Positions 1 through 64,000 of a stretch of 64,000 bases of DNA are shown here, piece after piece. The stretch is from a virus (taxonomy: Duplodnaviria > Caudoviricetes). The stretch lies in IMG/VR virus record IMGVR_UViG_3300033121_001553, positions 32,001 through 96,000 of that record; one strand, 5' to 3'. Each line of letters starts with the position of its first letter. Position 1 is the first letter of the stretch. Under the pieces are notes generated by a model, which was not told the DNA's origin, made no database searches, and was given only the letters and a program-made list of their open reading frames with translations. The position numbers and the translations under genes were made by a program.

Positions 1-597
1 AGCAAGAAAATAGTTATAAGCTTTTTTAAGTTTGAGATCTTTGCACAGACGAAGAGCGATGACTATCTCGCCGTACGTATTTCCAAGACAGAAGTTTATG
101 ATCAATGTTGCGATCGACGCGATCTTAGCAGATGTTTGTTCGACGGCTTGATTGTACGAATCGACAAACATCTCTTTATCTGTAAAGTTAACAGCATCTT
201 TTTTAAGCTTATTCTTGATCCATATCTTGTATTTTTGCAGAGCGTACATAAGAACATAATTGAACGCTGTTGTCGAGCTATTTTTGTAGATCGGTTCAAA
301 CGGTTGCGCGAATACGTCGCCGGGATCGTCGCTCATATGCTTAGCGCTGTACTCAGCAAAGTCAACTGCAAAAATCAACAACTCAGCCGCTGTTGCGTAG
401 TCAACAGAAAATTCTATGCATATCCTCAACGCAGCTGTTCTTATGATTATTCTACAGATCAGCAAATAGTCATTAAACGAAAAAACATTTTCGCTCTCAT
501 GTTGAACTATCATCCTCCCAGCTTCAACAATAGACTTGTAATGTTTTCGTAGCTGTACTATGTAAATTCTAATTATTTCGTCAACAAATTTATCCAT
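1..597 (-). CDS. Alpha-helical hypothetical protein, paralog family (runs off the left end of the window)
   Basis: Not in the ORF track because it has no stop in the window. ATG at 597, open to base 1 (MDKFVDEIIRIY...ELLIFAVDFAE...LRLCKDLKLKKAYNYFLA). Shares ELLxxxxD(Y/F)xE and LxRxxxxLKLxxA motifs with 1036..2172 and 2188..3333. Confidence 0.85.
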   Translation of the reverse strand, partial: MDKFVDEIIRIYIVQLRKHYKSIVEAGRMIVQHESENVFSFNDYLLICRIIIRTAALRICIEFSVDYATAAELLIFAVDFAEYSAKHMSDDPGDVFAQPFEPIYKNSSTTAFNYVLMYALQKYKIWIKNKLKKDAVNFTDKEMFVDSYNQAVEQTSAKIASIATLIINFCLGNTYGEIVIALRLCKDLKLKKAYNYFLA

Positions 598-598
598 A

Positions 599-1009
599 TC
601 AACCGTTATGCTGTCTTATGTAGCTTCTAACAAGCATACGTGTTTCAATACTTTCATCTGAAAATTCTCTGCTTATCGCTCTCGTTAGCTGTAGTCCAGA
701 CCCACCTGCTTTTTCGATCGCTACCCACGCAAAACGCCGCAGCATATCTGCCATCATCGTTCTGAAGTCTTCGTTAGACGTTATGTTTTTGTAGCCGTAC
801 TTTGCGCCTTCTTGCTCGGCGAGAATAACTGTTCTAACAAACAAATACCTAAATCTTTGCCCGACTACGCCAGCGACTTCACCGAACTTTCCACTTACAA
901 CAAATTCATCAAGCATACTGTCCACTTGCGCAGATGCTTCGTCCAAGAATGCATCATTTTCAATAGCTTCGCTAATGATCTCTTTTAGTTCGCTGAGTCG
1001 TATCTTCAT
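599..1009 (-). CDS. Hypothetical protein with N-terminal propeptide-like helix (possible virion protein)
   Basis: Starts MKIRLSELKEIISE; TATTTA motif just upstream. Confidence 0.75.
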   Translation of the reverse strand: MKIRLSELKEIISEAIENDAFLDEASAQVDSMLDEFVVSGKFGEVAGVVGQRFRYLFVRTVILAEQEGAKYGYKNITSNEDFRTMMADMLRRFAWVAIEKAGGSGLQLTRAISREFSDESIETRMLVRSYIRQHNG

Positions 1010-1014
1010 ACGCG

Positions 1015-1020
1015 TAAATA
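1015..1020 (-). promoter_or_regulatory. Candidate late-promoter motif TA(T/G)TTA (representative copy)
   Basis: TATTTA also at 5403, 7523, 11904, 13411, 16373 and 63064; TAGTTA at 22661, 52874, 54597 and 58753. Mostly 5-35 nt upstream of virion- or lysis-type starts. Confidence 0.55.
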
Positions 1021-1035
1021 TGCGAAGTGCCGCGC

Positions 1036-5424: not shown

Positions 5425-5895
5425 TAATTTTTTGTTTGTCTTCACGTTCTCAAGCATCGTTTCAGCGGGACCTTTAAGAACAAGCTTTGCTTTTGTGCCG
5501 TCATCAAGCATGACATAAGTCGGTTGTTCAACATGCTGAATTTCGGCTTCATTCACATTTTGATATGAACTTTGTACATTCTGTAGTCGATACTTCTCCG
5601 TTCTATCACCAATTTCAGCGATATAAGCATCGATAACGTTATTCATGCGTTTCTGGAGTTCGTCTCCGACTTGTGGTATTGACGTGTAAATAACACAGTT
5701 CGATGACAGCTCTTCTAGAACTTCTCTATTCGACGAAATGACACCGTCTTTGCTGATTTCTGCATAAACATGACGCTTCTTTTGACCATCAAGCGCAACA
5801 GTAATGTTAATCTCTACTATGGCAACAACCTTTATCACAAGTTTGCTACCAACAGACAGCAAATACAGTATCTGTCCAACGTTGTAGTCATTCAT
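5425..5895 (-). CDS. Hypothetical protein
   Basis: Start MNDYNVGQ overlaps the upstream stop region. Ends ...TNKK-TTA at 5425-5427 (standard-code stop 5410). Confidence 0.75.
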
Positions 5896-6187
5896 CTTGT
5901 TCTGATTCACTTCCATCATCAGCATCGCTATTATACTTTACGATGTTGATCGAGTACATCTGACTCATGCTTATCGCGTGATCTGGCGCTTCATCAATTG
6001 GAACATTAGCCGCTTTGCACAATTTTACGAGTTTGTTCCAAATTTTTGAATCTTGCTTCGCATCCATGAGTTTGCTTACTGGATCTGATACTTGTGAATT
6101 CGACACGACTATCGTAACGCCCATAAGCGCTCGCAGATGCTCAAGCTCATCACGACTCAACTTCAAATCGTATGTTTTTGTGGCCAT
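5888..6187 (-). CDS. Hypothetical protein
   Basis: 99-aa ORF; its ATG overlaps the TTA of the upstream gene (TTATG). Confidence 0.75.
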   Translation of the reverse strand: MATKTYDLKLSRDELEHLRALMGVTIVVSNSQVSDPVSKLMDAKQDSKIWNKLVKLCKAANVPIDEAPDHAISMSQMYSINIVKYNSDADDGSESEQDE

Positions 6188-6435
6188 AATTCATCACCGA
6201 GCAAAGCGTAAAATTCATCGTACGTATTTTTGTTATCAACAGACTCTACTATCTTTTTAACTCTCATTACTGCTTTAAGAGTTTTCATGTCGATTTTATC
6301 AGAGAACTCTTGGATGAGTTCCTTCCGCGACTCCGAGAGCTCAGCGAGCTCTTGTTCAAGTGCAGTGTAACGTTCAACAAACTCTTTGACATCATTCGGC
6401 TCATTCAAAACTTTATCTTCGTTTTTCTTCTTCAT
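6187..6435 (-). CDS. Small dsDNA-binding protein, GapR/DUF2312/T4 DsbA-like
   Basis: VKEFVERYTALEQE..ELSESRKELIQE....DMKTLKAVMRVKK pattern. Ends ...LGDE-TTA (standard stop 6163). Confidence 0.6.
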
Positions 6436-7517
6436 TATTTCGCTCCTGATGTTATATTTTGCACAGCTGCGTCGTACTTAGCAAGTAGATTTGAATTTAC
6501 ACCAGCACCGGCAAGTTGTTCACGCCTTTTTTTGATAGCTGACACGCAAGCATTTACAGCAGCAGCACGTATTTGCTGAAGCGAGACTTGCAGAAACTCT
6601 TGTTGAACTTCTTGCGGTAGCTTCGCCGCTTCAGCCTTGAGCTGAGGGAACTTTGAAAGATCTTTTATCGATGCTGCTTCACGTGCAGGCTGAAGCAACG
6701 CAGCAACGTCTCTATCGATAAAAGCTGTTGCGTCTGACATCATTGACTGCGCGCGCTTTGAGCTTGAAATCTTTTTTTGAACGTACGCAAGCACTTTATC
6801 GACTTTCTGCGCTGTTGCATCGTCTGCTTCAAGCAGCGTTGCACCGCTACGTGAACGCGAGTCATGCACGTCTATCCAAGCATGTCTGTTGAAATACTGC
6901 GATGCGTACTTTGATACGACATTTGGAGCTTCATGCTCGTACACTCCATCTAGAAATTTCGTTATTTTGCCGATGTTGGGTTCTTCACCCAACAATGCCC
7001 CAATGATACCAGTGATAGCGCCAGGCGCTTTACGAAAAAATTGAGTTGTAACAAAAGCAGTGGGATTGCTAATAAACGCAAAGAAGATAAAGTCATTATT
7101 TTCCCAAAGCGCCTTATCTGTTGATCTGTATACATCTTCGTACTTTTTTTCTATCGTATCAAGCAATTTATCTTGTTCATCGAATATCTGCTTGTACTTC
7201 GTCGAATAGAACGGTAGCACAACGCTTTTGACAACTTCGAATGCTGTCTTGACAGCGCCACGTGCGCGTACAAGCGTTTTCTGCCCTTCACCCGCTGCTG
7301 TCTGTATAACATCGACAAACGGTTTTACGAATGCTTTATAGATTCCCGACTGTTTAAAGTCAGTATCAATTTTGCCCCATGTGAAGCCTTGACCAGTGTG
7401 TACTCCACCCGTAGAGTCAAATGAAGCGCCACCACCTCCGCCGCCCTCGTCTTCAAGCAAAACGAGTCGTACATACTCTTGTATCAGGCGACGCTCAGTG
7501 TTAGTCAATTTTTTCAT
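6435..7517 (-). CDS. Hypothetical protein with propeptide-like N-terminus (possible virion protein)
   Basis: Start moved to ATG 7517 (MKKLTNTERRLIQEYVRLVLLE-DEGGGGG), after a TATTTA motif. The track's upstream extension contains an in-frame TTA. Confidence 0.75.
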   Translation of the reverse strand: MKKLTNTERRLIQEYVRLVLLEDEGGGGGGASFDSTGGVHTGQGFTWGKIDTDFKQSGIYKAFVKPFVDVIQTAAGEGQKTLVRARGAVKTAFEVVKSVVLPFYSTKYKQIFDEQDKLLDTIEKKYEDVYRSTDKALWENNDFIFFAFISNPTAFVTTQFFRKAPGAITGIIGALLGEEPNIGKITKFLDGVYEHEAPNVVSKYASQYFNRHAWIDVHDSRSRSGATLLEADDATAQKVDKVLAYVQKKISSSKRAQSMMSDATAFIDRDVAALLQPAREAASIKDLSKFPQLKAEAAKLPQEVQQEFLQVSLQQIRAAAVNACVSAIKKRREQLAGAGVNSNLLAKYDAAVQNITSGAK

Positions 7518-7521
7518 AGAC

Positions 7522-8187
7522 TTAAATAAGAGTTGTGCCGCTGATTCTTTGCCACTCTTTGAGTATCTCTGTCTCAACGTAGTTAAAAGTTTCGTATGAA
7601 TCTATCTTTGTGTGATCGTAACACGAGAAAAAACGTCTGCCAACAGTTGGTAGCCTGTACATCATCTCACGTCTTACTGTCTTTGGATCTGTAATATCGC
7701 TTCCTATAGACATCATTGTCATTGGTATGGTTGCTCTAATAAATTCTGGAAGCTTGTAGCCATCACCGTTCATATAGCATCTTACCAGATCAACAGTATT
7801 TCTAATGTGGTACTGTATGTTCGGCAAGTCATCTATATCACGTAGTTCAGTCCAACCGTACCTCGTCTCACGCGGTTCGTAGTCATCTATCTCGACTACA
7901 TAGTACCAGCACATACGATTTGGGTGTGTTGGCTTTGTTCTCATGACCCACGGTATCGGCAAAATACCTTTGCATTTGACGTCTGCAAACTTTTTACCAA
8001 AAAGTTCATAGCAGATATCGTCAACAGCTGTCTCAGTCGTATCGCTAAGCTCATTTTTGTCGCGCGGGTAGATCCAGTCATCGCTACCAGCTTTATGGCA
8101 TACAAGCAGCTTGTTCTTGCTATATGCGATGAGCCCTATCGTATAAATAATGCCCTTTTCAAAAAATTCTTGCTTTCGCTTCATCAA
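7522..8187 (-). CDS. Degenerate Nudix-fold protein
   Basis: LLVCHK...WIYPRDKNELSDTTETAVDDICYELFG has Nudix-box spacing but lacks G and REUxEE. Confidence 0.4.
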   Translation of the reverse strand: MMKRKQEFFEKGIIYTIGLIAYSKNKLLVCHKAGSDDWIYPRDKNELSDTTETAVDDICYELFGKKFADVKCKGILPIPWVMRTKPTHPNRMCWYYVVEIDDYEPRETRYGWTELRDIDDLPNIQYHIRNTVDLVRCYMNGDGYKLPEFIRATIPMTMMSIGSDITDPKTVRREMMYRLPTVGRRFFSCYDHTKIDSYETFNYVETEILKEWQRISGTTLI

Positions 8188-8196
8188 CCAAGATTA

Positions 8197-9699
8197 TAAG
8201 ACTTCTAGATAAAACTTTGGTCTAAAATTCATCGACACACCGTAGAATTTTAGATACGTTTGTATCGCGTTGTGCGTAAAGAGATAGAAGCCTTCTTCTG
8301 TAATGACAACGAGCGCCGTTGAACCAACAAATGCATTACCAACATTGAGTCTATCATTGATTTCTGTTATATACGATGTTGGATCAGCGTACTCAGTTCC
8401 AACTGCTGCTACTGCATCTGCTAGACTTACGATGCCATCTTCGTACGTGTATTCTGACTTGCTACCGAGTAGCTTCGCAAGTTTAACGAGTTTCGCTGTT
8501 TCAAGTTCACGCAGTTCATACGCTATATCTGGATCTATGTTGAGTAGCGTCTCTATCGCTGTTGTTCTTGCATCGAACATCTTGTACGGAAAAAGTTTTG
8601 TAAGCTCCCACATCGCGCGCATAATACCGTGTATGTTCGATATGAATGGCTCTGTTAGGGTTCCGCTGCTAAATGTCTTTTCGTAATGACTAATGAAATT
8701 TTTTGCGTACTCTGAAATCTTTATGATTTTTTCTATATTTGGAAGCTTTGCTATTGCTGAACGTGGTATCGAGCTGTAGACACTAACGTAACGTTTTATC
8801 GTGTTGAATATCTTAGAATACTCGACGTACACAGTTGAAGTAAACTCGCTTGATCCATGCACACCTGCGCGTATTACTGGACCGCTACTTCTTGTTATGC
8901 TTTTTACTTCGAGCTTCTGTCCGCCAGGTAGCAGCACATCGTACGTAAATGTATCAGAGCTTGATCTCTGACCGTTGAAAAGTGCGGCGACGAGCATCTC
9001 GCCGTCAGCGTCATCTTTCGATATGCGCAGCGAACGTGCATCGTAGTATTTCTCGTTACCGTCAGCGTCAACGTACGGTACACGATTCCACGGGACAAGT
9101 TCGTTATCATTGTGCAATGTGATGAACGACTCGTACGTTACGGGTGAACCGTAACTGCGTGTTGCCGACTTATCAAACTTCTGCTCTTTCTCAACTGCGC
9201 TAACAATCGCGTAGTCACTCATCTCAGGAAACATCATCGAGATACGTCGCTGTAGAACAGCAGGTATCGATGGACGCTTCTTTAGGAGCGCTGCTATGTT
9301 TCGTCCAACAGAGTCTTGCGTAGTTTCATATTCGCTATCAAATGCCAGCTTATACGCATCAGAAGTATCTATTGTTGTACCATCTGACAGCTTTACATCT
9401 GTATGAAATGAAAGATACGAAGCAACAAGCTCATTAAACGCATCACGTTGTTCTTCGTTGGCAGTTTTAAGAACATCGTGTATTACAGTAGCACCGATCT
9501 TTCTATTACTACCTGGCTTTAGTATCTTAGTCGCTGACGTAAGAAATTTTTGTGTATCTTCATTTTCGTGAAACAGGTCCCACAAGCCAATGAGCGCGTT
9601 TATTTTTGCGAATTCTTTAACACGCTTATCAAGCAAACCTTCATACAGCAAAAATTCATTCGCTATATTTTCTTTTAGCTGGCTTAGCCTCATTCTCAT
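8197..9699 (-). CDS. Propeptide-bearing protein with PD-(D/E)xK nuclease-like motif
   Basis: N-terminus MRMRLSQLKENIANE; internal GEMLVAALF...YDVLL...LEVKS; ends TTA-TAA. Confidence 0.55.
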
Positions 9700-10304
9700 A
9701 TTTTTGGAGTTATTGGTAGAGGTGCTGGTGACTTTTCTTTTTGCGATGATGTAGCAGCTGGTTTAACTTGCGGTTTCTGTTCACCTGCTCCCTGCTGATC
9801 ATTTTCTTTTTTCTCTGCGTACGCAAAAGTTATTCCAGGCTTTGGCATGTTGCCTGGTGCTATAGCGAGTTCACCGGGCAACTCTCCAGTGACGATCTGA
9901 CCGATACCCTTAAAGAACGAAATCATCGCAAGTTTTTCCATTGGAGAGAGCGCGTTGATATACTTCGTCAGCTGAGCTTTTACTTTATCGTCTTTGAACG
10001 ACTTGCCTGCTCGTATAACGTTCAGCTTCGCGATAATGTTCTCTATGCTGATGTTATTTACGTCTGCAAGTGCAGACACCATCACGCGTTGTTTCATCGC
10101 GTCGTTCATAGCGTTTACGTCAGTGCCAGGTGGAAGACCAGCTGCCTGCTGATTCGCTGCTGCATTTGCTGGTGGCTGTGAAGCGTCTGCCTGCGGCTGA
10201 GCTGGAACTGGTAGTTCGTCTGCTTCTCTCAATGACTTCTTTTTTGCGACTGTTTCGTTAATGACAGAAGCAAAAAGTGAATTAACATTTATTTTCTCAT
10301 TCAT
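9696..10304 (-). CDS. Hypothetical protein (Pro/Ala/Gln-rich linker, possible head-internal protein)
   Basis: 202-aa ORF; N-terminal ...VINE and LREA sites followed by low-complexity sequence. Confidence 0.75.
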   Translation of the reverse strand: MNEKINVNSLFASVINETVAKKKSLREADELPVPAQPQADASQPPANAAANQQAAGLPPGTDVNAMNDAMKQRVMVSALADVNNISIENIIAKLNVIRAGKSFKDDKVKAQLTKYINALSPMEKLAMISFFKGIGQIVTGELPGELAIAPGNMPKPGITFAYAEKKENDQQGAGEQKPQVKPAATSSQKEKSPAPLPITPKI

Positions 10305-10492
10305 TTCTTGACACCGTAGTAAGTTCTACCAGCTGGTCTCTCGTGATGCAGTCTCATGTAACGCTTGTAAGGATGCTCAGCGTCTTCAGAGACCGTTCCT
10401 GTTAGCTTCTTTGATGTTTCATTCGCTATTGCAGCGTCAACAAATTTATCAAAGTAACCGCCTGTTTCATTATCTTCTTTTTCGTCGCTCAT
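10301..10492 (-). CDS. Small hypothetical protein
   Basis: 63-aa ORF, tightly packed with neighbours. Confidence 0.7.
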   Translation of the reverse strand: MSDEKEDNETGGYFDKFVDAAIANETSKKLTGTVSEDAEHPYKRYMRLHHERPAGRTYYGVKK

Positions 10493-10493
10493 A

Positions 10494-10907
10494 TCAACCT
10501 CTAAAACTAACTACAATCGTCGCGCCGTTATCGTCGATACTATGCAATGCAGCATCAATAGGTATACAGCTGTTACATTCGTAAATCACGCTATCTTCAT
10601 TGTACGCGAACAGCACGCTAAACATCTTACCGCTTAGAAATGATTTCACAATTTCAACAGCAGACTCAACACTGTTTATTCTGAAACTGAATTCTAGTTT
10701 CTTTGATGTATTTATCGAAGACGCGTCAAATGAGTCTACGCTTACAGTTACATCGATATCTTCGTTGCTAAATGAAAGAAACGGTCGAAACTTTGCTGTA
10801 ACGCTTAGCTTCGCCGTTTCACGATCAGAGTAGTCAGCTATCTGATCTGCTATTTCTTCTGATGCTAGATAGACTTCGTCTTCATTGTCTTTCGTCAACG
10901 ATCTCAT
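10494..10907 (-). CDS. Hypothetical protein
   Basis: ATG 10907 preferred; the track's TTG start at 10925 is followed by an in-frame TTA. Confidence 0.7.
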   Translation of the reverse strand: MRSLTKDNEDEVYLASEEIADQIADYSDRETAKLSVTAKFRPFLSFSNEDIDVTVSVDSFDASSINTSKKLEFSFRINSVESAVEIVKSFLSGKMFSVLFAYNEDSVIYECNSCIPIDAALHSIDDNGATIVVSFRG

Positions 10908-11232
10908 AAGCGTTGATTGTAACAATTTCTTTGTAAACTTTATCGATATAATTCGTTGCAGTCACAGTTGACTGTTCTGGCTTCGTTCCACTTGGCGCTG
11001 ATGTTCCGACTCTCACGAATACGCTTCTGCCTGCGTAAGTCACTTCTATGTCTGTTGCATCGCGTTGTTCAAATGTTAGCAGCGAAACAATAAATTCATT
11101 TCTTAGTTGAAGATCAGCGAAGTCGTATGTTCGATACATAATCGAATTGCTGACTTCCCACTTTTGCATTGCTGCAATTGGGAATTTCTTAACAGGATTT
11201 TTATTTACTTTTATCGCCGCTACGTTTATCAC
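10882..11232 (-). CDS. Pterin-4a-carbinolamine dehydratase (PCD)-like protein, degenerate
   Basis: KWEV....MYRTYDFAD....EFI pattern and length fit the PCD fold; the catalytic HHP is absent. Confidence 0.5.
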   Translation of the reverse strand: MINVAAIKVNKNPVKKFPIAAMQKWEVSNSIMYRTYDFADLQLRNEFIVSLLTFEQRDATDIEVTYAGRSVFVRVGTSAPSGTKPEQSTVTATNYIDKVYKEIVTINAYEIVDERQ

Positions 11233-11242
11233 AAAATTACCT

Positions 11243-11893: not shown

Positions 11894-11977
11894 AGCGCAT
11901 GCATAAATACACATCGCTAAGCAAGTTAATACTACGAATATCTCTAATCTAACTCCCCGTCTCAGATGAGGATTTAG

Positions 11978-12724: not shown

Positions 12725-12728
12725 CGTT

Positions 12729-13394: not shown

Positions 13395-13420
13395 TTTTGC
13401 TGTCCCCGCTTAAATAGCAT

Positions 13421-13717: not shown

Positions 13718-13721
13718 AAGA

Positions 13722-14551: not shown

Positions 14552-14745
14552 AACTTTCTTCTGTTATCCAACGAATTTGATATTCTTGTAAGTTTTCTAT
14601 TGACATCATCGATGCCAGACAGCACTGACTGCTGACGCAAAGAAACGTCTGCAAGACCAGCCCACAGACGTTTTATCTCATCAGAGTCTTGTATCGATTC
14701 TGTAACAAGACGCGCTATTATTTTCTTTATGTAAGCTCTTATCAT
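14551..14745 (-). CDS. Small hypothetical protein with propeptide-like N-terminus
   Basis: MIRAYIKKIIARLVTE; ends RRK-TTA overlapping the next ATG (TTATGA). Confidence 0.6.
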
Positions 14746-16938: not shown

Positions 16939-16942
16939 TATT

Positions 16943-52758: not shown

Positions 52759-52786
52759 GGCCCACCAGTAACACCAGAATGCGTAT

Positions 52787-52835
52787 AAAAAAAACTTCTT
52801 CGCCCGGTAACGGTTTTTATTGACCGTCCGGGCGA
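52787..52835 (-). terminator. Hairpin plus U-tract in the leader of the tape measure gene
   Basis: Outer stem TCGCCCGG/CCGGGCGA (52800-52835), inner ACGGT/ACCGT, T8 run 5 nt downstream on the minus strand. Confidence 0.55.
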
Positions 52836-52876
52836 GATTTTTGAAAATTTCGTTCTGCAGCTCACCGCATAAGTAA

Positions 52877-53152
52877 CTAGGTGAATCTGCGTGTTCTCGT
52901 TGGCGCGTGAGGATTTGTCATTCCCTGAAGTGCTCTTACGTCTGGACTATTCTGATGTGCTGCACGTGTTCTTGCGCCGCCATCATCACCATTTTTATTT
53001 ATCTCTTTGTTGATTCTTTCAATCCACCATTGCTTCATAACAATTGGCATATTGTAACCTTCGATGTACGAGAACCCACCGTAGTACATGAGATTGAAGA
53101 TGGGCTCCCATATAAGGCTAGCTTTATTTTCTGGCTGATGGCCAAAGAAAGT
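52877..53152 (-). CDS. Second tail-assembly chaperone ORF (candidate frameshift extension of 53124..53981)
   Basis: Frame is open from 53152 (TFFGHQPENKASLIWEPIFNL) but the first ATG is at 53089; ends TAG. Confidence 0.6.
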   Translation of the reverse strand, partial: TFFGHQPENKASLIWEPIFNLMYYGGFSYIEGYNMPIVMKQWWIERINKEINKNGDDGGARTRAAHQNSPDVRALQGMTNPHAPTRTRRFT

Positions 53153-53981
53153 TTATTCCGATTGGAATGCTAACCTCCTGATCGGCTCCACACTTCGAGC
53201 ACGTACAGTTCTGTTTTGTGTCTACGCCAGGTTCGTTCGAGTCAATAAACTCGCGCAATGCCAAACTATCTCGTGCAGGCATGTTTTTTATGAAGCTGAC
53301 TGTGTGATGACCAGCCTGCACACCAGCTATTGATGTTACGCATGATACAAGCTTTGTTGTAACGTTGCTATCGATGCGTGATCCAAGCTTTTTTGCTGCT
53401 TCTTGCGTCTTCGTAATATTGTCTTCATCGTAGCCAGTCAGAAACTTGAACATTACATCTCTTTTCGTAACCGGTAGAGTAAATTTAAACTCGTTTACTC
53501 CTTGTGTTACTGGCTCGATCATGAGACGCTTCAGACCGAGCTGCGCTAGATCAAATACATATTCGAATTTTTCTGAGCATTCGTTGCATGTGATCTCAGC
53601 TGAATAGTCGGCGCCGTAGCCAGTAATTCGCACTGCGAACATGAGCGCAGTTTTATCACCAGAGAGCATGCTATTCACGTCTATTCGCTTGTCAACAAGA
53701 CAACTCTTAATGAGCTCGTTAATGACAGTGCCCTTCTTCAGCAACGCTCTGCTCGTAAGAATGTCTTCTTCTCTTGTCGTCATAGGCCTAATGTCGACAG
53801 TCTCGCACATGTGTAGAGCATTATCAGGTGAATAGATAACGCCTCTGCTTGGAATCGGTACGGTCTCTTGCGGTATGTCCAAACCAAGCTCAGCGAGCAG
53901 TTCATCGTTTGACTTCGTTTTTACGTTATTTGCTTGAGCGCTTTGTAGAACAGCTGGATTTATTCTATCTGATGACATCAT
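53124..53981 (-). CDS. Tail/baseplate-hub assembly chaperone (T4 gp26/gp51-like)
   Basis: IPSRG, RPMTTREEDIL, two CxxC motifs and C-terminal FLWP; lies between tube and tape measure genes. Confidence 0.75.
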   Translation of the reverse strand: MMSSDRINPAVLQSAQANNVKTKSNDELLAELGLDIPQETVPIPSRGVIYSPDNALHMCETVDIRPMTTREEDILTSRALLKKGTVINELIKSCLVDKRIDVNSMLSGDKTALMFAVRITGYGADYSAEITCNECSEKFEYVFDLAQLGLKRLMIEPVTQGVNEFKFTLPVTKRDVMFKFLTGYDEDNITKTQEAAKKLGSRIDSNVTTKLVSCVTSIAGVQAGHHTVSFIKNMPARDSLALREFIDSNEPGVDTKQNCTCSKCGADQEVSIPIGINFLWPSARK

Positions 53982-54014
53982 TCACATAATAAAATTTACG
54001 ACTTCGTAGTAAAC

Positions 54015-54042
54015 AAAAAAAGGGGCCCTTGCGTGACCCCTT
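54015..54042 (-). terminator. Rho-independent terminator after the tail tube gene
   Basis: Minus strand AAGGGGTC-ACGCAAG-GGCCCCTT followed by a T run. Confidence 0.8.
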
Positions 54043-54069
54043 CAAAATGCGAATGTTACAATGCAAAAA

Positions 54070-54561
54070 TCAATACTGAAGTATGCAGTTATCGAATCTG
54101 ATAGAAAGAGAAATTTCCATTGGCGCTGCGTCTGCGCTGTAGTCGAGATCACCAAACGCTACGCTTGTAAGCATTGCGCCCTTGATATCCCAGAGCTCGA
54201 TAACGTTACCGATCGGATCAAGCATCTTCAGCTGAACATCTCGTTTGTAAAAGTCAGCGTACCCAGCGCGACCGGACACAGACTCGTAATGCAGTCTAAT
54301 CCACTCCATCACCTGCTGCGCTCCAGACGGTGCTATCGCATCCGTGATGACAACTTCCATTGGTTCGAACGTTGTTTTCCCAGCGATGTAACGCGTTGCA
54401 TTGATCCAAGATATCGTATGCTCAACGGTTGTGTACTTTGGACGCGCTGATTTCTTAATCAGAAATGCGTCGATACCTTCAATGCTAAGAACCCAACGCG
54501 TATTGCGCTTTGGCTCAAACTTATTTGGGAGCATTGAGGTTACGTCTAGGGTCTCAGCCAT
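54070..54561 (-). CDS. Tail tube protein (T4 gp19-like)
   Basis: FEPKR..RW, AGK, YKRDVQLKMLDPIG.VIE.W.IKGA...FGDLDY motifs; strong RBS (AGAGGA). Confidence 0.9.
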   Translation of the reverse strand: MAETLDVTSMLPNKFEPKRNTRWVLSIEGIDAFLIKKSARPKYTTVEHTISWINATRYIAGKTTFEPMEVVITDAIAPSGAQQVMEWIRLHYESVSGRAGYADFYKRDVQLKMLDPIGNVIELWDIKGAMLTSVAFGDLDYSADAAPMEISLSIRFDNCILQY

Positions 54562-54629
54562 TTTCTCTTTCCTCTGTTACTTTCTTCAACTAGAACTAAC
54601 TATGCGTATTCTTTCGTTCAACGCAAAAT

Positions 54630-54971
54630 TTATAGCGGACTCCACTTTGACGTTTGCTTCGTAAAACGCATTGGCTTATAGCCACGTACTCTTGGCACAG
54701 CTTCAATGTAATTTGTTCCATCATCATCAAATTCATTTTTGAGATGATAAAAGTCCAGCACCTTGTCGCTTGGTATATTAAGCTCCTTAGCGAGAGATGC
54801 AGCTGCATCAGCGTTTTGTCTCTGCTCGGCGTCTTGTCTACCGACATTGTACTTTGTGCTGCCAGCACTGCTTGGAGCACCGCCTGTGATACCAAGATTG
54901 CCGATTTCGCTTAGTACTTCTCTGATTATTCTTTTTACGTCTTCTTCTCTAACAAATCTTTTTGACTTCAT
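54630..54971 (-). CDS. Hypothetical protein with propeptide-like N-terminus
   Basis: MKSKRFVREEDVKRIIREVLSE. Confidence 0.75.
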   Translation of the reverse strand: MKSKRFVREEDVKRIIREVLSEIGNLGITGGAPSSAGSTKYNVGRQDAEQRQNADAAASLAKELNIPSDKVLDFYHLKNEFDDDGTNYIEAVPRVRGYKPMRFTKQTSKWSPL

Positions 54972-55237
54972 AATGATCTCCAGGTCCTTGCAACAGGATC
55001 CCAGCTAAGTGAATTCATAGCATTCTCTCGTGAACGTGCGTACAACGCTCCATCTTCAAGCGTTAGTCTATACTCTGCTTCAAGCTTATCTTTCGGTAGA
55101 TTGAGCGTCTTTTGCAATGCTAGATACGCACCAAAAAATTCTCTATCAACTTCGCCTTTCGTAAGTTCTTTAATGGCTTCTTCTGTAAGCAAAGCGCTCG
55201 CAATGTAAGCCCGAAGTTCAGAAAGGCGAAATTTCAT
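54971..55237 (-). CDS. Hypothetical protein with propeptide-like N-terminus
   Basis: MKFRLSELRAYIASALLTE (ATG 55237); ends WRS-TTA overlapping the next ATG. Confidence 0.75.
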
Positions 55238-55719
55238 TCTCCAACCCAAGCAGGAATCTTAGCAGCAGCTGCAGTTACATACTTTAGTATGCTTTGAAGC
55301 GCAACGTAAGCATCTCTTGAATGCGCAAGATTCGTTTCTTTTGACTTATCGTATTTTGCTGCTGTACTAACAACAATCATGAAGATGTCTTTGAAAGCTT
55401 TCAGCTCGGCTGCCGCTTTCGCATTATCTGAAATCTGATCGATATCCATAACGCTTTGAGACAGCTGAACAAGAATAGTTTTCGCAGCAGTTAGCAACTG
55501 AAACATTTCTTCTGGCGTTTTATCTTCGCCAGAAGCAGGATTGTAATTTGCTGTTTTCGCTGCAAGCAGCTTTTTTAGCTGATACAATTTGTACGTTACG
55601 TTACGCAGTACGGCTTTTGCCTGTTCTTGCGTGAATGTACCTTCCTGCAGGAGCAAACGATCTCTGTACTCCTGCAAGATTAGATTACGTATTTGTTTTG
55701 GTGTTAGCTTGTATACCAT
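55234..55719 (-). CDS. Hypothetical protein with propeptide-like N-terminus
   Basis: MVYKLTPKQIRNLILQEYRDRLLLQE. Confidence 0.75.
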   Translation of the reverse strand: MVYKLTPKQIRNLILQEYRDRLLLQEGTFTQEQAKAVLRNVTYKLYQLKKLLAAKTANYNPASGEDKTPEEMFQLLTAAKTILVQLSQSVMDIDQISDNAKAAAELKAFKDIFMIVVSTAAKYDKSKETNLAHSRDAYVALQSILKYVTAAAAKIPAWVGE

Positions 55720-55737
55720 GATGTCCTGCTGTGATTA

Positions 55738-58700
55738 TAACGCTGGGATGCTGTTCGATACGACGAACTCAAGCGAAACGAACTCAATAGAACGCGTTGG
55801 TTGCACGTAGATCTTGCCACGAATCGTGTTGTTCTCTACGTCTGCTTGCGTTGTTGTCGTTGTGTCAATCTTTACGAGGTAGCGATCGACACCCGCGTTC
55901 TTCTTTGCTTTATCGAGGATTGGCTCAACAGCAGAAGCGAATCTTGCGAGCGTTGCATCTCTATTTGGCTCGAACAAGAATGTTCTTGCAACGTTTCTTA
56001 CGTCTCTTCTGAGAGAGATGAGCAAACGTCTTACGTTCACGCGATCGAGCGCTGACTGCGCTGCGAGCAGCGTCTTCTGTCCCCATACGACGGGTGCCTG
56101 TCCTGGGAACGAAACGATTGGGTTGATGTCTGCATCGTACAACACGTTCATGTTGTCCTTCGACAGCTTGACAGCAACGTTGACTGTCGTATTGAGCGCG
56201 CCACGCGTAAAGCCAGCTGGAGCGAACCATGGGAACGCGAGTCTATCATTCAACGCAAGCGCGCCGAGTACAGCGACAGATGGCGGGCACTGCACATTCG
56301 AATTTGTCGTTGGGTCTGTTATCACGACGTCTGGGAAGTACGCTGCACCGAACGAAGAGTCGAGACCACGGTTCAAGAACTCCTGCGACGTGTTGTTGAC
56401 GCTTGGGAGCTGAGCTGATGATGTAACAACAAAGTTGCTGCTGTCTCTCTCTTCGACGTCCATGATGTACAAAGCGTCGAATCTGTCTTCCGTTGCAAGC
56501 AACGCAGCGTCAGTAACAACTGAGTGTCTGATGCCTGGGATCGCGATTATCTGCGCATCGATATTCGTTACTTCCTTCACGATATCAATTGCCTTTATGT
56601 ACGATCTTACAGAAGGGCCAAGGTTAGTTCCGCGACCGTTACCGCTCTCCATATCCTGCGTTACGGCAATGTTGCTGATCTTTGACTCTTCTTCGTTGAA
56701 GATATTGACACCATCAAATCCGCCCTGCATGAAGAAGCTGAACTTGATGTATTTCTTATTTGGAGTTGTCAAGTCTGACGTTGACAACGCACGTGTCTTC
56801 GCTGTGTCGTCAGCTGTGATCGAACCGTTACGAACGTAGACAGCTTCGTTCCACTTCGTAGAGTCTGCGTACGTATTCGATGCTGTCGTCACCTTGATGT
56901 TTTCTAGCGAGAATACGTTCATGCAGTAACGATCTGCGTCGAGGATACCGTTTGCAGCTGTATCAGCCACACCCTGGTTATCAGCAGCAACAACATTCAT
57001 ATTTGTGCTGTAGAAATTTGGCATGTAACGAGCGTATCCGTCGAATGAACGATTACGTGCAACGCTAGAATTTAGCTCGTTTACATTCGCGCTGTGCTCG
57101 AACTTCACGCCCCAGTAAAACAACGGTTGGACTGTCTGTTTCTGACCCGTTCCGAGCGTAATGTTCTGACGTAGCGGAACAGGTGGTGTAAGCGTACGCT
57201 TTGCGCATAGCAACGAGTCAAGTTGCGAACTTGTAACTGCTTGCAGCGGAGCAGAACCGCTTGTGACAAGATGAGCAATGCCACGTATACCCATTGGCAA
57301 TGCAGTTGCATCGATTTCGCCATTTTCGACTGTTGTCGATACTTCTACTCTTACGTAACGTGACTTCTGCGGATAGTTACCAGCTGTCACAAGCTTCTGC
57401 GACTTCTCTACACGATTCCAGTCATAGTACGTGTAAAGATCACCGATTGCCTTTGCAACGTAACGATCAGAGCTTGGATCGAGCGAGAGACCTCTGAACT
57501 GCTCGAGTATCTTTACGTCAGTATCTCTATCAGTAATGTCTCTGATAATCAGATCGAATGTACCGTACTGGTACGCCGTGTCTGACGACGGTGTAAGATT
57601 TTCAATAGAGAACTTGATCTTGTTTGCCGTGCTTTCGCCGTCATCGATCGCATGCAGTCTAAAGAGGTTCTTGGCAACGCCACCGAACTTCTGAGATACG
57701 ATCCAAGGCGTCTTTGCAGCGCTGTATCGATCTTCAAAGTTCTCGTAGTTTGGCACAGTTGTCGAACCCGCATTGCGCCCAAGGGAGCTTGTTAGCAAGA
57801 ACGCAGCAGACTCAGCGCCAACAAGCGGTGCTGTAGAAGTTGCGCCCGCACCGCTCAATACGCTAACATAACCTGCACCCGTTACAACAGCGACAGCGCT
57901 ATGCACATCCCAGCTTGCGTAGAGATAATGACCAGCTTGCTGAAGTTTGAATGGATCAGTATTGAAAACATTCGCAAAGTAGTTTGGCGCCGTTATGTCA
58001 AATGACGCCGTAATGCAGTTAGGATACTTTGCGTCTGTACCCTTGTGACCATTCAGCAGCATTACGAATTCTTGCTTTGAAACGCCGCCAGCCGTTAGAA
58101 CAACTGTGCCAACAGCTGAACCTCTAGCAGAGGCGTCATCTGCGATAAGAGATGAAACTGGCTTGACGCTATTCTCAACAGATGAAGACAGTCTGAGCAG
58201 AACACCAGATGCCGCCATAAGTACGCCTCTTATGATCGGTACAGAGCTTGAGATATCTGGCGTTATACCGCCAGTTCCCTGAAGTCCTGCGCTGGAGAAG
58301 AACGTCGAACCATTGCTCTCAGACATCAGACATCCCAGGAAATATGTTCTTCCTGGAACACCATTTGTATTTGCATACGGATTCGACGTTATTGTACCAA
58401 CAGTCGACGGTTGATTTTCGCCAACAACAAAACCTGCTGCTGCAACTGTATCATCAGTCTCACGTTTCTTACCCTGACCAACGCCAAGAACACGCAAGTA
58501 AGTGGCTGCTGACGCATTATTCAGCCACTCACGCACTGCGAGTGGACCGAACTTCTTACCGTCAGTTTTACCGAAGACTCCCTGGAAGTCGTTGAAGTTA
58601 CCAAACGTTGTTGGAACAAACGCTGGTCCTTTCTGCGACGTACCAATGATGACTGCGGGTATTCCAGTAACTTCTGCTGCTACAGGAGCCGATAGATCTT

Positions 58701-58740
58701 TTTCGCTTGCGTTAACACCGCCGCTGCCGTTTTTTGCCAT
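55738..58740 (-). CDS. Tail sheath protein, copy 2
   Basis: KGPAFVP, PWFAPAGFTRG, INPI, WGQKTL, DRVNVRRL and FEPN motifs; ends PA-TTA-TAA. Confidence 0.93.
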
Positions 58741-58782
58741 TTTCTCTTTACCTAACTAGCATTGCAGACGCTATTCTTCGTA

Positions 58783-61773
58783 TCAAACGAACTCAACGCC
58801 CGAATTTGTGATGATGAAGTCAAGCGAGATGTATTCAGCTGCTCTGATCGGCACAACAATGATTGCGCCGTTAAGCCTTTGTGCTTCAACATCTACTTGC
58901 GAGTTATTTGTGCTATCCATGATTATCTTGAACGACTTGATACCAGTCTGCGCCTGGATCAGTCCAAGCTGCAGTGTTGCGTCTGCCTTGAACTTATCTC
59001 TTGTCGTCTGCGTATTCTGCTCAAATACCATACGTGTCGCGATATCGATAATCGTACGCTTCACTTCTAGCATCAGTCTTCTTACGTTCACTCTATCGAG
59101 CGCCGAAGGATTGAGCTGAAGTGTCTTCTGACCGAAGATCACGTAACCTGTACGTGGAAGATTTGCGATTGGATTGATACGAACATCTTGCAGACGATCT
59201 CTGTCTGCGACGCTCAAACGTGTTCTTGCATTCTTCACGAAATCAAGCGATGTTCTGTTGAAACCCGCAGGAGCAAACCATGGCTGGCTCAACTTGTCGT
59301 TCAAACCTATCGCAGCGAATGCTGCGACTGATGCTGGGACGAGAACGCGTCGCTTGTTCACGGTATCCTCTGCGTACACATCTGGGAAGTATGTGCTACC
59401 GTAGTTGTTGTCTATCACACGTCCATCGAACAGACTCGTCGTCTTATCAACGTCTGGTGGCGATGTCGAGTCATCGTACAGGCGGTTACCAGAGTCGTCA
59501 TAAGATGGAATATCCATGATGTAAAGCGCCATGGCGTATTCCTTCGTCTTCTTCAGCGCATAGTCAGTCATGTAAGACTCACGTATGCCTGGAATGACAA
59601 GCAGGTTCGTTCTAACTTCCATTGGATCTGTCATAACATCTACTGCTTTGATGTATGAGTTTACAGTATTGTTGTCTTTACCAACGCCACCGCAATTGTA
59701 GAGCAAGCCAGGACTTACATACGAACTCTCTGCGCCACCATTCGTATCGAACGACGATGCCTTATCGTTCATTCTTCTTGCATTTCTGTCGAGCGTATTG
59801 AAACCATCGAAACCGCCAGCCAAGAATGTTGAGAACTTCGCGAATCCAGAGAATCTGTTGAAGTCAGCTGAGCTTGTCTGTGCGACGAGCGTTGCAAGCG
59901 TTATTCTGCTTCCGAACGTACCATCGTTGATTCTGTAGTCAGATCCGTTGATAACGCCATCACGCAGATACGCCGCTGTTTTCATGTGATCGCTGACAGA
60001 GCCAGTCAGATCAGCAACTGCGCCGTTAGCAAATGCAACCTTTGCAAGTGTAAACTTATTGTCGTTCTGTGTATCAACGCCAGATCCCGTTAGAACAGCA
60101 TCAAGCAGCCCGATCCCGACAAACTTTGAGTACGCTTCAACAACAGCATTCTTCTCAGACGAGATATTTGGGTTGAGTGGATCGTTATTGCGTTCAAACT
60201 TCACACCCCAGCAGTAGTTCTGATTCACAACTTCAAGTGATCCTGCTGCACCTGGGAATGATGGAGAAGTTGGCGAATCGCCCTTTGTCACCTTGAACCT
60301 GAACGGAAGCGGTGGAACAATCGAGTTAGCAAGCAAACCAACTCCGGTGCCCGCGAGTCTTGTAGTCGTATTATCATCTGTTAGCGCATCGTTTGTCTTC
60401 AGCGATGAAAAACCTCTGAAGCCGAATGGTAGCGAACGAGCTGGTACAAGAGCGCGTTTTACTGCGTCTGTTACGTTTACTCTTATGTACTTCGATCTGT
60501 TCTTGTAGTTGCCAGTCGTGATAAGACGTCTGTCTGAGTCAAATGTTGAGTCGAAGTTGTAGTAAGACTTCTGATCGCCTATCAAACGTGCGATGAATCT
60601 TTCTGACGAAGGATCTAGCGAGCAGTTAGGGAACTGCTCTAGCACATTTTGATTTGCGTCGTTATCATCCCAGCTACGAACAAGAACCGTAAATGTTCCA
60701 TATGGTTTTGACTCATCTGGCGACATTTTCAAGTTGGTTATCGTAATCTTGTAAAGATTATTCGCGTATTCGCCATCATCAAGCGCTTCAAACGAGAACA
60801 AGTCGTACTCAGTACCACCAAATGGCTGCGAAATGAACATCGTTGTCGATGGAGTTGAGTAGCGAACGTCGAAATGACCGTACGCATCTCTGAAGATCAT
60901 CGTTGTGTCACCACTTGTCGTAGACGTGCTCGCAGAACCCGACAGTACAGCGACAGCGTCAGCAGACGCAACTTCATCATCTACTGCGTAGTCTGCCCAT
61001 AGCAGATGCTGCTCCTCGACAAACTTATCTGGATCGCGGTTCAACAGCTTGCCGATATAGTTCTTGCTACCCGGATTCAGAGATGCTGAGAACACCTTCA
61101 CGCCAGCACGACCATCTGCATTTGACCATGACGAACCAAGACTTGACGAGATAACAAGCTTAAACAGCCCGCTTGACATCGCAGCGTAGTCATCGACAGC
61201 AGTGTTCAGACCAGCTGGCATCGCCTCAGCGCCGCCAAGAACCATCAGTCTTGCGCCAGATGGCATGAGCACCATAGCTCTAATGATGCTGCCTGTCGTT
61301 GGTCCCCATGACGTATTGTCTGTGAACATCGGCATACCAGCTGCTTCATTCGCAGAAAATGTATGCGACGCTGCAATAAACTGTACTGCGCCTTTGTGTC
61401 TGTTATCTCCAGACCCTACTGATGTGCCTGTAACAACAAATCCTGCATTCTTTACCTGACCAGTTCTAAGCGTTTTTTCAATTTCGCCAGTTGATGAATT
61501 GGCTCCAGCGCCAAGCACTCTACAGTACGTAAGCGACGGTCTGTTCTTCAGGTACTCTGTTGCGGCGTACGTACCGTACATCTTTGGATCAACGTTGCCA
61601 AATACGCCGACGTACTGATCCAAGCTGCCAACTGTCGTTGGTACGAAAGCAGGACCTTTCTTGCTTGTTCCAATAACGCCCGCTGGGGTACCTGCAGGCG
61701 AAGCCTCAGCTGGCGCCGATAGATCTATCTCACGTTCGTAGTAGTTCGGCGATTTATACGTCTGTTCAGGCAT
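58783..61773 (-). CDS. Tail sheath protein, copy 1
   Basis: SPNYYEREIDLS, KGPAFVP, PWFAPAGFNR, FGQKTL and DRVNVRRL motifs. Confidence 0.93.
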   Translation of the reverse strand: MPEQTYKSPNYYEREIDLSAPAEASPAGTPAGVIGTSKKGPAFVPTTVGSLDQYVGVFGNVDPKMYGTYAATEYLKNRPSLTYCRVLGAGANSSTGEIEKTLRTGQVKNAGFVVTGTSVGSGDNRHKGAVQFIAASHTFSANEAAGMPMFTDNTSWGPTTGSIIRAMVLMPSGARLMVLGGAEAMPAGLNTAVDDYAAMSSGLFKLVISSSLGSSWSNADGRAGVKVFSASLNPGSKNYIGKLLNRDPDKFVEEQHLLWADYAVDDEVASADAVAVLSGSASTSTTSGDTTMIFRDAYGHFDVRYSTPSTTMFISQPFGGTEYDLFSFEALDDGEYANNLYKITITNLKMSPDESKPYGTFTVLVRSWDDNDANQNVLEQFPNCSLDPSSERFIARLIGDQKSYYNFDSTFDSDRRLITTGNYKNRSKYIRVNVTDAVKRALVPARSLPFGFRGFSSLKTNDALTDDNTTTRLAGTGVGLLANSIVPPLPFRFKVTKGDSPTSPSFPGAAGSLEVVNQNYCWGVKFERNNDPLNPNISSEKNAVVEAYSKFVGIGLLDAVLTGSGVDTQNDNKFTLAKVAFANGAVADLTGSVSDHMKTAAYLRDGVINGSDYRINDGTFGSRITLATLVAQTSSADFNRFSGFAKFSTFLAGGFDGFNTLDRNARRMNDKASSFDTNGGAESSYVSPGLLYNCGGVGKDNNTVNSYIKAVDVMTDPMEVRTNLLVIPGIRESYMTDYALKKTKEYAMALYIMDIPSYDDSGNRLYDDSTSPPDVDKTTSLFDGRVIDNNYGSTYFPDVYAEDTVNKRRVLVPASVAAFAAIGLNDKLSQPWFAPAGFNRTSLDFVKNARTRLSVADRDRLQDVRINPIANLPRTGYVIFGQKTLQLNPSALDRVNVRRLMLEVKRTIIDIATRMVFEQNTQTTRDKFKADATLQLGLIQAQTGIKSFKIIMDSTNNSQVDVEAQRLNGAIIVVPIRAAEYISLDFIITNSGVEFV

Positions 61774-61811
61774 TTTTAATTTATCTCCATCTAGGCTTTC
61801 AGCAATCGCTA

Positions 61812-63056
61812 TTACGATTTGTTACTAGCTCGAATAATTACACCGCTCTCAAGCCGAAACACGCGTTCGCCAAAGTTACGTGATGTTATTCTGCTTCTTA
61901 CAAATGTTCCATTGACGTACGTGCCTCTGTAAGGTGATGCAGCATACGGATCAGACGGATTCAAAAACTTTTTTTTCTTTGGATCGTTATAAAGTTGATC
62001 GTATTTTGAAAGACGAGGCAAAGTTGGATCTTGCGCGTAATAGTTTGGATCGATCAGCTCTTCTAGCTTCTCATTTTCTTCACGCTCACCAGCTTCTGAC
62101 GCATCGATATCAAACCCTATGTACGCAGGCGACACAAAACTACGTGTTGCAACGGGTGCGCCAGGTTCATCTCCTGGTATATGATACGCAGGTACGCTTA
62201 GCTGAAATTTGTATTTCACGATTCTTTCAGCTTTCTTCATATCATCAAAGTTATTTTCTGGATCGTACGCTTCAGACACATAAGCAACGAACCAGTAACC
62301 TTTGCTTGTTGAAATTCTTATCGTTCTCTCGCCTGTCGGCAAGTAAGATGCAAACAACTGCTGCATCATCTGATTCATATGAGTTACATACTGTGTCCAA
62401 AAAACAACTTCGTAGTTAGCTGTGTAGAACTGTGGTGATGGTAGCTGCACGTACTCCCACACACGATTAGTATCATCAGTTCTAATAAACGCTCCATCGA
62501 CAACATCGCTGTCAGACTTATTCATATGCGCAAGTTCATCGTCTGACGCAAGCATGTACTGATCGATCTGCGATGGTTCTACGGCTAGCGATTTATCATT
62601 TGGTATCGCATCTCTGTTCATCGGTCTTTGCGTATTAACGTCTGCTTGCGAAAGCAAACGTTTAATAACAAAATTGCCAGTCGACTGATTCATACCACGC
62701 CCAGTAATATCTTTTACTGGATCTTGAACGATACCTGTTCGTCTTATAGAAATAAGCGGAAGTATGAGATTACCGTTCTTGTCTCGAACTCCGAGATCGC
62801 GTTTCATCATTGCCCAACGCTCTCCGCTTGCAAAAACAACGGGAACTTTTTTAGCATTAGACGTATTCGTGCCAATAACTGTGAATCTGATGCCTTCGTC
62901 AAATGCTGTAGCAACAGCAACGTCAACATCTTCTATACCACACGACGGAACATTGACAGACGCTAGCTGTCCAGCGTAGCCAGACGGCGTTCCATCGCTG
63001 CTACCAGCTTCGTACCGTGTTACTGTGTCTGTGCTGGGGCCGCGTGTCGTTGGCAT
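61812..63056 (-). CDS. Tail completion/terminator protein (gp15-like)
   Basis: KVPV....ERW, LPLISIRR and MNQM motifs; position between neck and sheath genes. Confidence 0.6.
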   Translation of the reverse strand: MPTTRGPSTDTVTRYEAGSSDGTPSGYAGQLASVNVPSCGIEDVDVAVATAFDEGIRFTVIGTNTSNAKKVPVVFASGERWAMMKRDLGVRDKNGNLILPLISIRRTGIVQDPVKDITGRGMNQSTGNFVIKRLLSQADVNTQRPMNRDAIPNDKSLAVEPSQIDQYMLASDDELAHMNKSDSDVVDGAFIRTDDTNRVWEYVQLPSPQFYTANYEVVFWTQYVTHMNQMMQQLFASYLPTGERTIRISTSKGYWFVAYVSEAYDPENNFDDMKKAERIVKYKFQLSVPAYHIPGDEPGAPVATRSFVSPAYIGFDIDASEAGEREENEKLEELIDPNYYAQDPTLPRLSKYDQLYNDPKKKKFLNPSDPYAASPYRGTYVNGTFVRSRITSRNFGERVFRLESGVIIRASNKS

Positions 63057-63067
63057 CTAAACGTAAA

Positions 63068-63727
63068 TAACTCGTCGTAAAACGTGTTACCAGCAGTGGT
63101 GCTATTTTTATCCGAAATTTCTCTCTGACCTTCTATCGGTGGATCCAACGTACCATTTTCCTGGAGCTCTCTCTTGTCACCAGTCATACCCTCTTTGTTC
63201 TCTGGCAGGCCACGCTGTTGAACAAATGTTTTTTGAACAGCGTCTGGATCTGTGTATCTCTCGTCTGTTGGACCAAATATCTTTGTCTTGAAGTTAGACT
63301 CGCGTGCTGTTACGCCAATAAGCTTCACGCCGTCTGTGCGCTCTACCTGACCGTAGATGGCACGCATGTACGTAATTTCTGTTACTTCAAAGAACAAAGA
63401 ACCGTAAGAGAAAAAATCTCCAATTGACAGCTCTATCTGCTTGTCAAGCATATCTCTGTAATGCAGATACGCCTCTATCGTGTACGTATTTTCGTAGCTG
63501 AATGTGTCGATCTTTGCGTCACGTTCTGGTTGACCGACGATCGCATCAAGCACGATCGGATTCTCAAAAATTTTCTCCGGACTTTCGTTGTAGACAGAAT
63601 TTGCGCGCGTCTTGACTTCAGATATCGAATAGTAGTAGATCTTCTGACCGACGACATCTTTGATGTACTCTTTTGTTATATCGCTTATGAAATTAATTTC
63701 ACGTTCAGTTACAAATAGTCTTGCCAT
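63068..63727 (-). CDS. Neck/head-closure protein (gp14-like)
   Basis: GQKIYYY, VYNE...K.F and IGDF..Y...FFEV motifs. Ends FYDE-TTA 11 nt before the next ATG (the standard stop at 63020 overlaps the next gene). Confidence 0.7.
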
Positions 63728-63730
63728 CTG

Positions 63731-64000
63731 TCATCCTATAAAGATCGGTTTTGCGATCGGCACGTAGGCAAGCTGTTTTGCAATATTCTCAGCTCGTAGC
63801 GCTTCTTTTTCTTGCAGCTTATCGCTCGTAAGCTCCTTCAGCCACTCTACGATTGTGTCTACAAGCTTTGTTTTGTCTTCACGCGCTTGCGCTATCAGCT
63901 CTGCTCCATTCAGCTTCAAGTCTGCGCCCGGTATTGGGATTGTTTCAAGCTTCGTGCGTACAATGCCGAGCAGCTCTTTGCACAATGCTAGACAGTACTC
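63731..64000 (-). CDS. Neck protein (gp13-like), C-terminal part
   Basis: Frame open to the window edge: EYCLALCKELLG.VR.K...IP.PG....LNG.EL...A, ending P.FIG. Confidence 0.75.
   Translation of the reverse strand, partial: EYCLALCKELLGIVRTKLETIPIPGADLKLNGAELIAQAREDKTKLVDTIVEWLKELTSDKLQEKEALRAENIAKQLAYVPIAKPIFIG

Follow-up and report, generated by a model that had tools for sequence, protein, structure and literature searches.

The locus described here raises the question of what terminates translation at UUA in a phage whose genes commonly end on that codon. The window, by which we mean the whole 64,000-nucleotide stretch that was analysed, spans bases 32001-96000 of a linear 186,819-base virus record that is 52% complete according to CheckV. 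By its gp23 capsid, gp20 portal, terminase, sheath and gp13/gp15 neck, the phage is a T4-like jumbo myophage, and it also encodes a polymerase of the DnaE type and a ribonucleotide reductase that bears an intein. A sequence-only reading of the window had taken TTA to be a stop and offered three explanations, namely a host lineage that itself stops at UUA, a release factor encoded elsewhere by the phage, or a hungry codon resolved by ribosome rescue.

Gene calling with TTA treated as a stop gives 196 genes, which together occupy 95% of the record and end in TGA (93), TTA (63), TAA (36) or TAG (4). The 64 genes of the window end in TGA (28), TTA (20), TAA (14) or TAG (2). In the two arms by which the record was later extended, 31 of 109 gene calls end in TTA. 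The genes that bear on the use of TTA are as follows.

5425..63070, minus strand: the 20 TTA-ended genes of the window, with stop codons (low coordinate) at 5425, 6187, 8197, 11978, 12744, 13421, 14551, 14732, 21793, 23227, 27699, 28568, 29096, 29717, 36593, 37658, 39342, 54971, 55738 and 63068
11243..12667, minus strand: apparent table-11 fusion that is split at TTA into two genes
12667-11978, minus strand: 229-aa gene with a TTA stop, probably a carbon-nitrogen hydrolase
11893-11243, minus strand: separate 216-aa gene, the other half of the apparent fusion
23227..26736, minus strand: TTA-ended DnaE-type DNA polymerase (1169 aa), which under table 11 would be 40 codons longer and run into the next frame
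30816..34274 (frame 30816-34289), minus strand: ribonucleotide reductase with intein
55738..58740, minus strand: TTA-ended tail sheath protein
63068..63727, minus strand: neck-region gene with a TTA stop
98924-102295 of the genome (numbered so that the window is 32001-96000), outside the window: scaffold and capsid genes, both TTA-ended

The ends of homologous proteins were compared with the positions of these codons. For the capsid, 78 of 79 homologues have an ordinary stop exactly at the TTA of the phage (offset 0), and the remaining capsid (L009), which is 68% identical, has TTA at the same position. The phage that carries it has no TTA among 417 Leu codons and is placed as the sister of ours (SH-aLRT 98) in a quick capsid tree of 38 rows, from which the more distant 43 loci were left out. 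All 64 scaffold homologues stop within five codons of the TTA, where read-through would add 644; all 14 homologue ends for g15 fall at TTA; and for the neck-region gene, which read-through would lengthen by 16 codons, 22 of 26 homologues stop no more than one codon away from the TTA. As homologue ends sit on TTA, the question of whether it acts as a stop can be regarded as settled. One consequence is that databases hold fused or extended proteins for such genomes, for example a 1127-aa scaffold-capsid call.

Gene spacing leads to the same picture. The distance from a TTA-ended gene to the next start is like that seen for TAA-ended genes, with six one-base stop-start overlaps and none longer than 30 nt, whereas reading through TTA would create an overlap of more than 30 nt with the next gene in 29% of cases (0% with TTA as stop). 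In long table-11 frames, TTA occurs before the start codon, in the last few dozen codons, or clustered at apparent fusions. A comparison of 57 genes between strains, which are too close to be discriminating, gave no stop-codon polymorphism and no change in read-through tails. As TTA recurs in independent assemblies, sequencing error does not explain it.

Since the absence of internal TTA is true by construction in a gene set called with TTA as a stop, codons were counted separately under alignments of relatives' proteins. These covered 10,745 codons, with 822 other Leu codons and four TTA. Three of the four are located at gene ends or beyond them, and the fourth belongs to an alignment in the wrong frame, leaving no in-frame intragenic TTA. 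In relatives of similar GC3, TTA makes up 1-29% of Leu codons, and typically about 11%. The intein had been described as TTA-free, and this holds, with no in-frame TTA in the 1158 codons of the reductase frame that contains it. UCA and UUG remain sense codons. TAG is a stop where this can be checked, as two TAG-ended genes finish where their homologues do, and amber recoding was not found, the sequence being 95% coding with TAG as a stop. TAG is also scarce in many relatives. With 20 of 64 window genes ending in TTA, gene interiors free of it, and homologue ends coinciding with it, the premise of the sequence-only reading is upheld, and we hold it to be nearly certain that TTA is a stop in this phage.

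To see the remainder of the genome, we used proteins that are identical in many other assemblies to extend the record by 61 kb leftwards and 18 kb rightwards. The final left extension matched the right end in the same orientation, giving a composite circle of 266,960 bases (the 267-kb genome) that joins several strains, with the joint region 78-90% identical between them. A search of IMG/VR for a record of the missing arms found none. Shine-Dalgarno use is weak (30 of 151 genes) and points to no particular host. The genes related to translation all lie outside the window, at these positions in the genome (same numbering as above).

14351-14593: IF1
153911-154308: Pth2 and an adjoining tRNA with a CUA anticodon
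179890 to ~189655: array of 31 tRNAs without Leu(UAA), which runs past the end of the record (L100, L101)

In addition, the phage carries an RNA ligase and a PIN-PhoH protein, and the majority of the small genes in the arms belong to no known family. The genome encodes 34 tRNAs, among them 12 kinds with a U34 anticodon that cover all A-ending sense codons except CGA and UUA. CGA can be read by an ACG tRNA through inosine wobble. The Leu tRNAs have the anticodons UAG, GAG and CAA, so that UUG, an abundant Leu codon, has its own tRNA, and Leu(UAA) is absent. The window itself had been noted to lack tRNA and tmRNA genes; this is correct but trivial for the tRNAs, which lie elsewhere in the genome, and no tmRNA was found by ARAGORN on the composite or by Rfam on seven loci.

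The reported absence of a release factor from the window was confirmed and extends to the whole genome. The RF-1 family (PF00472) has no match in the 187-kb record, where it would also reveal an ArfB/YaeJ-like gene, no called gene in the walked arms matches PF00472 or PF03462, and none of the GGQ tripeptides encountered has a release-factor context. An unfiltered search of all six frames of the composite with a bacterial RF1/RF2 profile gave a best E value of 0.03. Two candidates were rejected: the only called window protein with a GGQ tripeptide (8197-9699), which lacks a release-factor context and belongs to no Pfam family, and a PCRF match of 18 bits, below cut-off and inside a 696-aa head-module gene. 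Four related virus records had no RF-1 match, and no viral contig matched an RF2 pattern with Ala or Gly at Ser204. As the closed genome encodes no RF1/RF2/ArfB-like protein, the proposal of a phage-encoded release factor fails as written, leaving room for a non-homologous cofactor alone. The reader of UUA is not a phage release factor, and since the whole genome is without one, the UUA stop is most likely read by the host.

The common stops of the phage (TGA, TTA and TAA) are the set of RF2 plus UUA, and TAG, which only RF1 reads, is hardly used. RF2 is thus the probable reader of UUA. We take Ser204 (Thermus numbering) to be the Ser that follows a conserved Thr downstream of SPF. In labyrinthulean mitochondria and peDinoflagellate plastids, the use of UUA as a stop accompanies replacement of RF2 Ser204 by Ala, Gly or Cys, and the plastids have lost the UAA tRNA as well (PMC12574857). 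The earlier expectation that UUA would need an altered factor agrees with this organellar precedent (PMC12574857). However, many GC-rich bacteria in which TTA encodes Leu have an RF2 with Ala or Gly at this position. As a marker for UUA stops it gave 120 metagenome hits, mostly GC-rich and several with plain internal TTA, and in Labilithrix luteola the change occurs together with two tRNA-Leu(UAA) genes and internal TTA. Because the change is common where TTA is Leu, it can predispose to UUA termination at most, and further changes in RF2 would be needed.

The RF2 of L. luteola led us to the Polyangiales, of which 301 genomes were screened; a 13-mer tRNA probe used in this screen misses some true Leu(UAA) genes. 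Three RF2 variants (an Asn/Thr loop type, a Gly204 type, and a type with SPF changed to SKF or SRF and a three-residue deletion) were rejected, as each sits in genomes with internal Leu-TTA; since all three had looked equally promising, an odd RF2 is no proof of a changed code. A fourth type has both codon-reading elements changed on a Ser204-Ala background. In clade member G279, the helix-5 tip has Val changed to Gln, Ala to Ser, and a conserved Asp to Gly, while the SPF loop has Leu changed to Phe before SPF, Phe to Tyr within it, and three residues changed after Asp. The altered loop is common to eight of 383 Polyangiaceae, a tally that, like that of the earlier screen, takes in the unpublished genomes G348 and G180, on which no conclusion here depends; a full RF2 alignment was made for one of the eight, and one of them keeps the Phe in SPF.

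We also see that tRNA-Leu(UAA) was detected in none of the eight clade genomes, as against 11 of 16 relatives (Fisher p 0.002, with the eight probably representing one evolutionary event), the eight being fragmented assemblies, in which tRNA genes are often missed. The other Leu tRNA slots of the same eight genomes were filled in 29 of 32 cases. An altered RF2 together with an undetected tRNA-Leu(UAA) is what one would expect to see in a bacterium that stops at UUA, and it echoes the Leu tRNA set of the phage. The candidate clade may itself stop at TTA; 6 kb from one of its genomes contained no informative TTA.

Gene content gives hints of a link between the phage and the Polyangiaceae, and one window gene is of interest here.

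34267..35124, minus strand: DNA methyltransferase

Full-length orthologues of this protein occur in three Polyangiaceae at 55-61% identity, whereas the matches in one Acidobacteriota and one Bacteroidota control are partial and at 35%, which may be a weak hint to the host. For IF1, the nearest Atlas cluster is commonest in Myxococcota, and identity is 55% to Labilithrix but 42% to clade member G279; this similarity, too, might give a weak hint. The cultured phages whose capsids are most closely related have Flavobacterium and Microcystis as hosts (at most 49% identity over part of the protein). When all GTDB species were probed for the rpmJ end plus TTA, a test of low power, a single genuine rpmJ match emerged, and its genome uses TTA normally. 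Within the ~80 kb tested, neither CRISPR spacers nor prophages linked the phage to the clade. Of the three original explanations, the first, in which the host lineage itself terminates at UUA, now accounts best for the data, and a candidate clade with an altered RF2 can be named for it. That this clade or a similar lineage is the host is our inference, and for this particular clade we judge the chance to be a little short of even.

We consider termination at UUA by an RF2 of the host to be the most likely mechanism, and on balance a probable one. On this view the phage has four real stop codons, and the fourth, UUA, is recognised by a release factor of the host, most probably an RF2 whose codon-reading head has been rebuilt. 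The host would lack tRNA-Leu(UAA), and the phage would follow the code of its host, with a tRNA set that is close to complete but has shed Leu(UAA); a phage that uses its host's code does not need a factor of its own. In a GC-rich host, TTA would be so rare that the change is hidden, and an AT-leaning phage would expose it at a third of its genes.

Next in rank, and unlikely in our estimation, is a stop created during infection. Here the host would read UUA as Leu until the phage removes its tRNA-Leu(UAA), whereupon termination is carried out by a permissive host RF2 (e.g. Ser204-Ala) or by one that is retuned by a small non-homologous phage protein. If this were true, host proteins would be truncated too. 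The near-complete replacement tRNA set without Leu(UAA), accompanied by Pth2, IF1, RNA ligase and the PIN-PhoH protein, is what such a strategy might look like, permissive RF2 forms are widespread in GC-rich bacteria, and the many small arm genes of no known family could include a suitable protein. However, TTA-ended genes are spread over the entire genome, also in the arms with their small genes, so the code would have to be in force already in the first minutes, when no phage product has yet been made. Pfam scans recognised no anticodon nuclease family, and a bacterial clade with the expected signature exists.

Far less probable is that UUA is an undecoded hungry codon, at which ribosomes are freed by tmRNA, by ArfA/ArfB-type rescue, or by peptidyl-tRNA drop-off with the help of the phage Pth2. 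The cognate tRNA is indeed missing and the Pth2 gene, itself TTA-ended, is present, but tmRNA marks what it releases for degradation, and Arf factors act where the mRNA is cut or vacant. Neither route suits capsid, sheath and polymerase genes in operons with stop-start overlaps, and the genome has no tmRNA or ArfB. With one in three genes ending in UUA in tight operons, the rescue explanation of the sequence-only reading is a poor fit. Less probable again is a recognisable class-I release factor in an unseen part of the phage genome: a strain-specific gene could be missing from a composite closed across a joint of such divergence, but the searches of the composite, arms, related records and viral contigs all speak against it. 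Least probable of all is that TTA encodes Leu as usual and is avoided except near C-termini, where it is tolerated, since the standard stop that often follows within a few codons (median ~7) makes tails as short as non-coding sequence gives, while homologues end on TTA rather than at the later stop, read-through would fuse scaffold to capsid and run many genes into their neighbours, and the sister phage has TTA at the same capsid end.

New in this work are the closed genome without a release factor, the gap in the tRNA set, the failure of Ser204 as a marker, and an independent examination of a candidate clade. A more far-reaching reading, which we advance tentatively and consider slightly less likely than not, is that UUA became a stop in a free-living Polyangiaceae clade when the codon-reading head of RF2 was rebuilt and tRNA-Leu(UAA) was lost, that this is the first sense-to-stop change outside organelles, and that the phage is its AT-leaning reporter. 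A bacterial or phage case would mean that even a full-size translation system can undergo a sense-to-stop change. It would also supply natural RF2 variants, perhaps able to accept a pyrimidine at codon position 2, that could serve recoding work, and it suggests a rule for host prediction, namely that hosts of TTA-stop phages should lack tRNA-Leu(UAA).

Our search of the literature for UUA stops, which left most subscription journals outside, found them in organelles only. UUA is a stop in labyrinthulean (Thraustochytrium) mitochondria, a code listed as NCBI table 23. As of 2025, sense-to-stop reassignment had been described only in mitochondria and one plastid lineage, the peDinoflagellate plastids, where UUA and UCA are stops (PMC12574857). 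The phage resembles these labyrinthulean and peDinoflagellate systems in that UUA is found only at gene ends where homologues stop, the standard code produces false fusions (PMC12574857), the cognate tRNA-Leu(UAA) is missing, in our case from the phage's own set and undetected in the eight candidate hosts, and RF2 is implicated, in our case as the probable reader. It differs in being a bacteriophage and, by inference, in involving a free-living bacterium, and in keeping UCA and UUG as sense codons; moreover, the change at Ser204 typical of the organellar RF2s is frequent among bacteria in which TTA still encodes Leu. In the mitochondria of Marsupiomonadales and Pseudoscourfieldia, both UUA and UUG are stops (PMC12574857). 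The Leu-to-stop change is likewise attributed there to an altered class-I release factor, but it concerns both UUR codons and mtRF1a, whereas UUG is read as Leu here.

Two further systems invite comparison. In Streptomyces, under control by bldA, UUA is a sense codon inside regulated genes. The rare UUA codon is similarly singled out and avoided there (PMC10732093). In the phage, by contrast, UUA is never internal and aligns with stops. The crAss-like and Lak phages are recoded from stop to sense, often in hosts with the standard code, and may carry suppressor tRNAs or release factors. Like them, our phage is large, has a code that differs from table 11, and breaks gene callers. Unlike them, it has changed in the opposite direction, lacks a factor of its own, and employs the variant across every class of gene.

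Several loci of the T4-like phage genome that lie outside the window were examined, together with related phages and bacterial release factors. They are as follows, with L handles denoting loci:

genome 110089-113286 (L004), single frame of 1065 aa, SbcD-like phosphoesterase at its start
genome 137483-158419 (L006, L007), 20-kb block of glycosyltransferases, UDP-galactopyranose mutase, carbamoyltransferase, radical SAM and sugar dehydrogenase
genome 153911-154308 (L007:1911-2308), Pth2 and a CUA-anticodon tRNA
L100:5381-9953, tRNA array
L100:1-5310, L124:1800-15200 and L268:1-6100, dozens of tandem small genes of 55-100 aa each

The 1065-aa frame contains no internal TTA, and frames of equal length are found in the related phages L275-L277; it is probably a genuine SbcD-SbcC fusion. 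The terminases of these phages are around 50% identical to that of our phage, and their GC content is 51%. In each of them TTA occupies 0 of 194-246 aligned Leu codons, and no TTA-ended genes were seen. The sample that yielded L277 also contains our phage.

The CUA-anticodon tRNA has a good fold and starts 11 bases after Pth2. TAG is scarce in the phage genome, yet is still a stop, and this tRNA may force read-through of TAG-ended host genes. In the array, the Leu tRNAs are just 74-76 nt long and lack the long variable arm, and a UAU-anticodon Ile tRNA stands beside two CAU tRNAs. Clusters of tRNA genes with 72-85% similarity to the array occur in two candidate-host assemblies (G459:C300 and G460:C116); they may be arrays of the host itself or come from phage contigs that were binned with it.

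The gene content of the 20-kb block suggests glycosylation of DNA or of the virion. The tandem small genes, which match no Pfam family, lie where the genome varies most between strains, and those read in L100 all have a short motif resembling GDIE close to their N-terminus.

Among bacteria, RF2 of 15 Polyangiales genomes (L379-L390, L459-L461) carries SKF or SRF in place of SPF, plus a three-residue deletion. In the members checked, TTA is read as Leu and the stops are TGA, TAG and TAA. Separately, the RF1 helix-5 tip is changed from AGTGG to AAEGG or AAAGG in four Polyangiales genomes (L443, L445, L446, L448).
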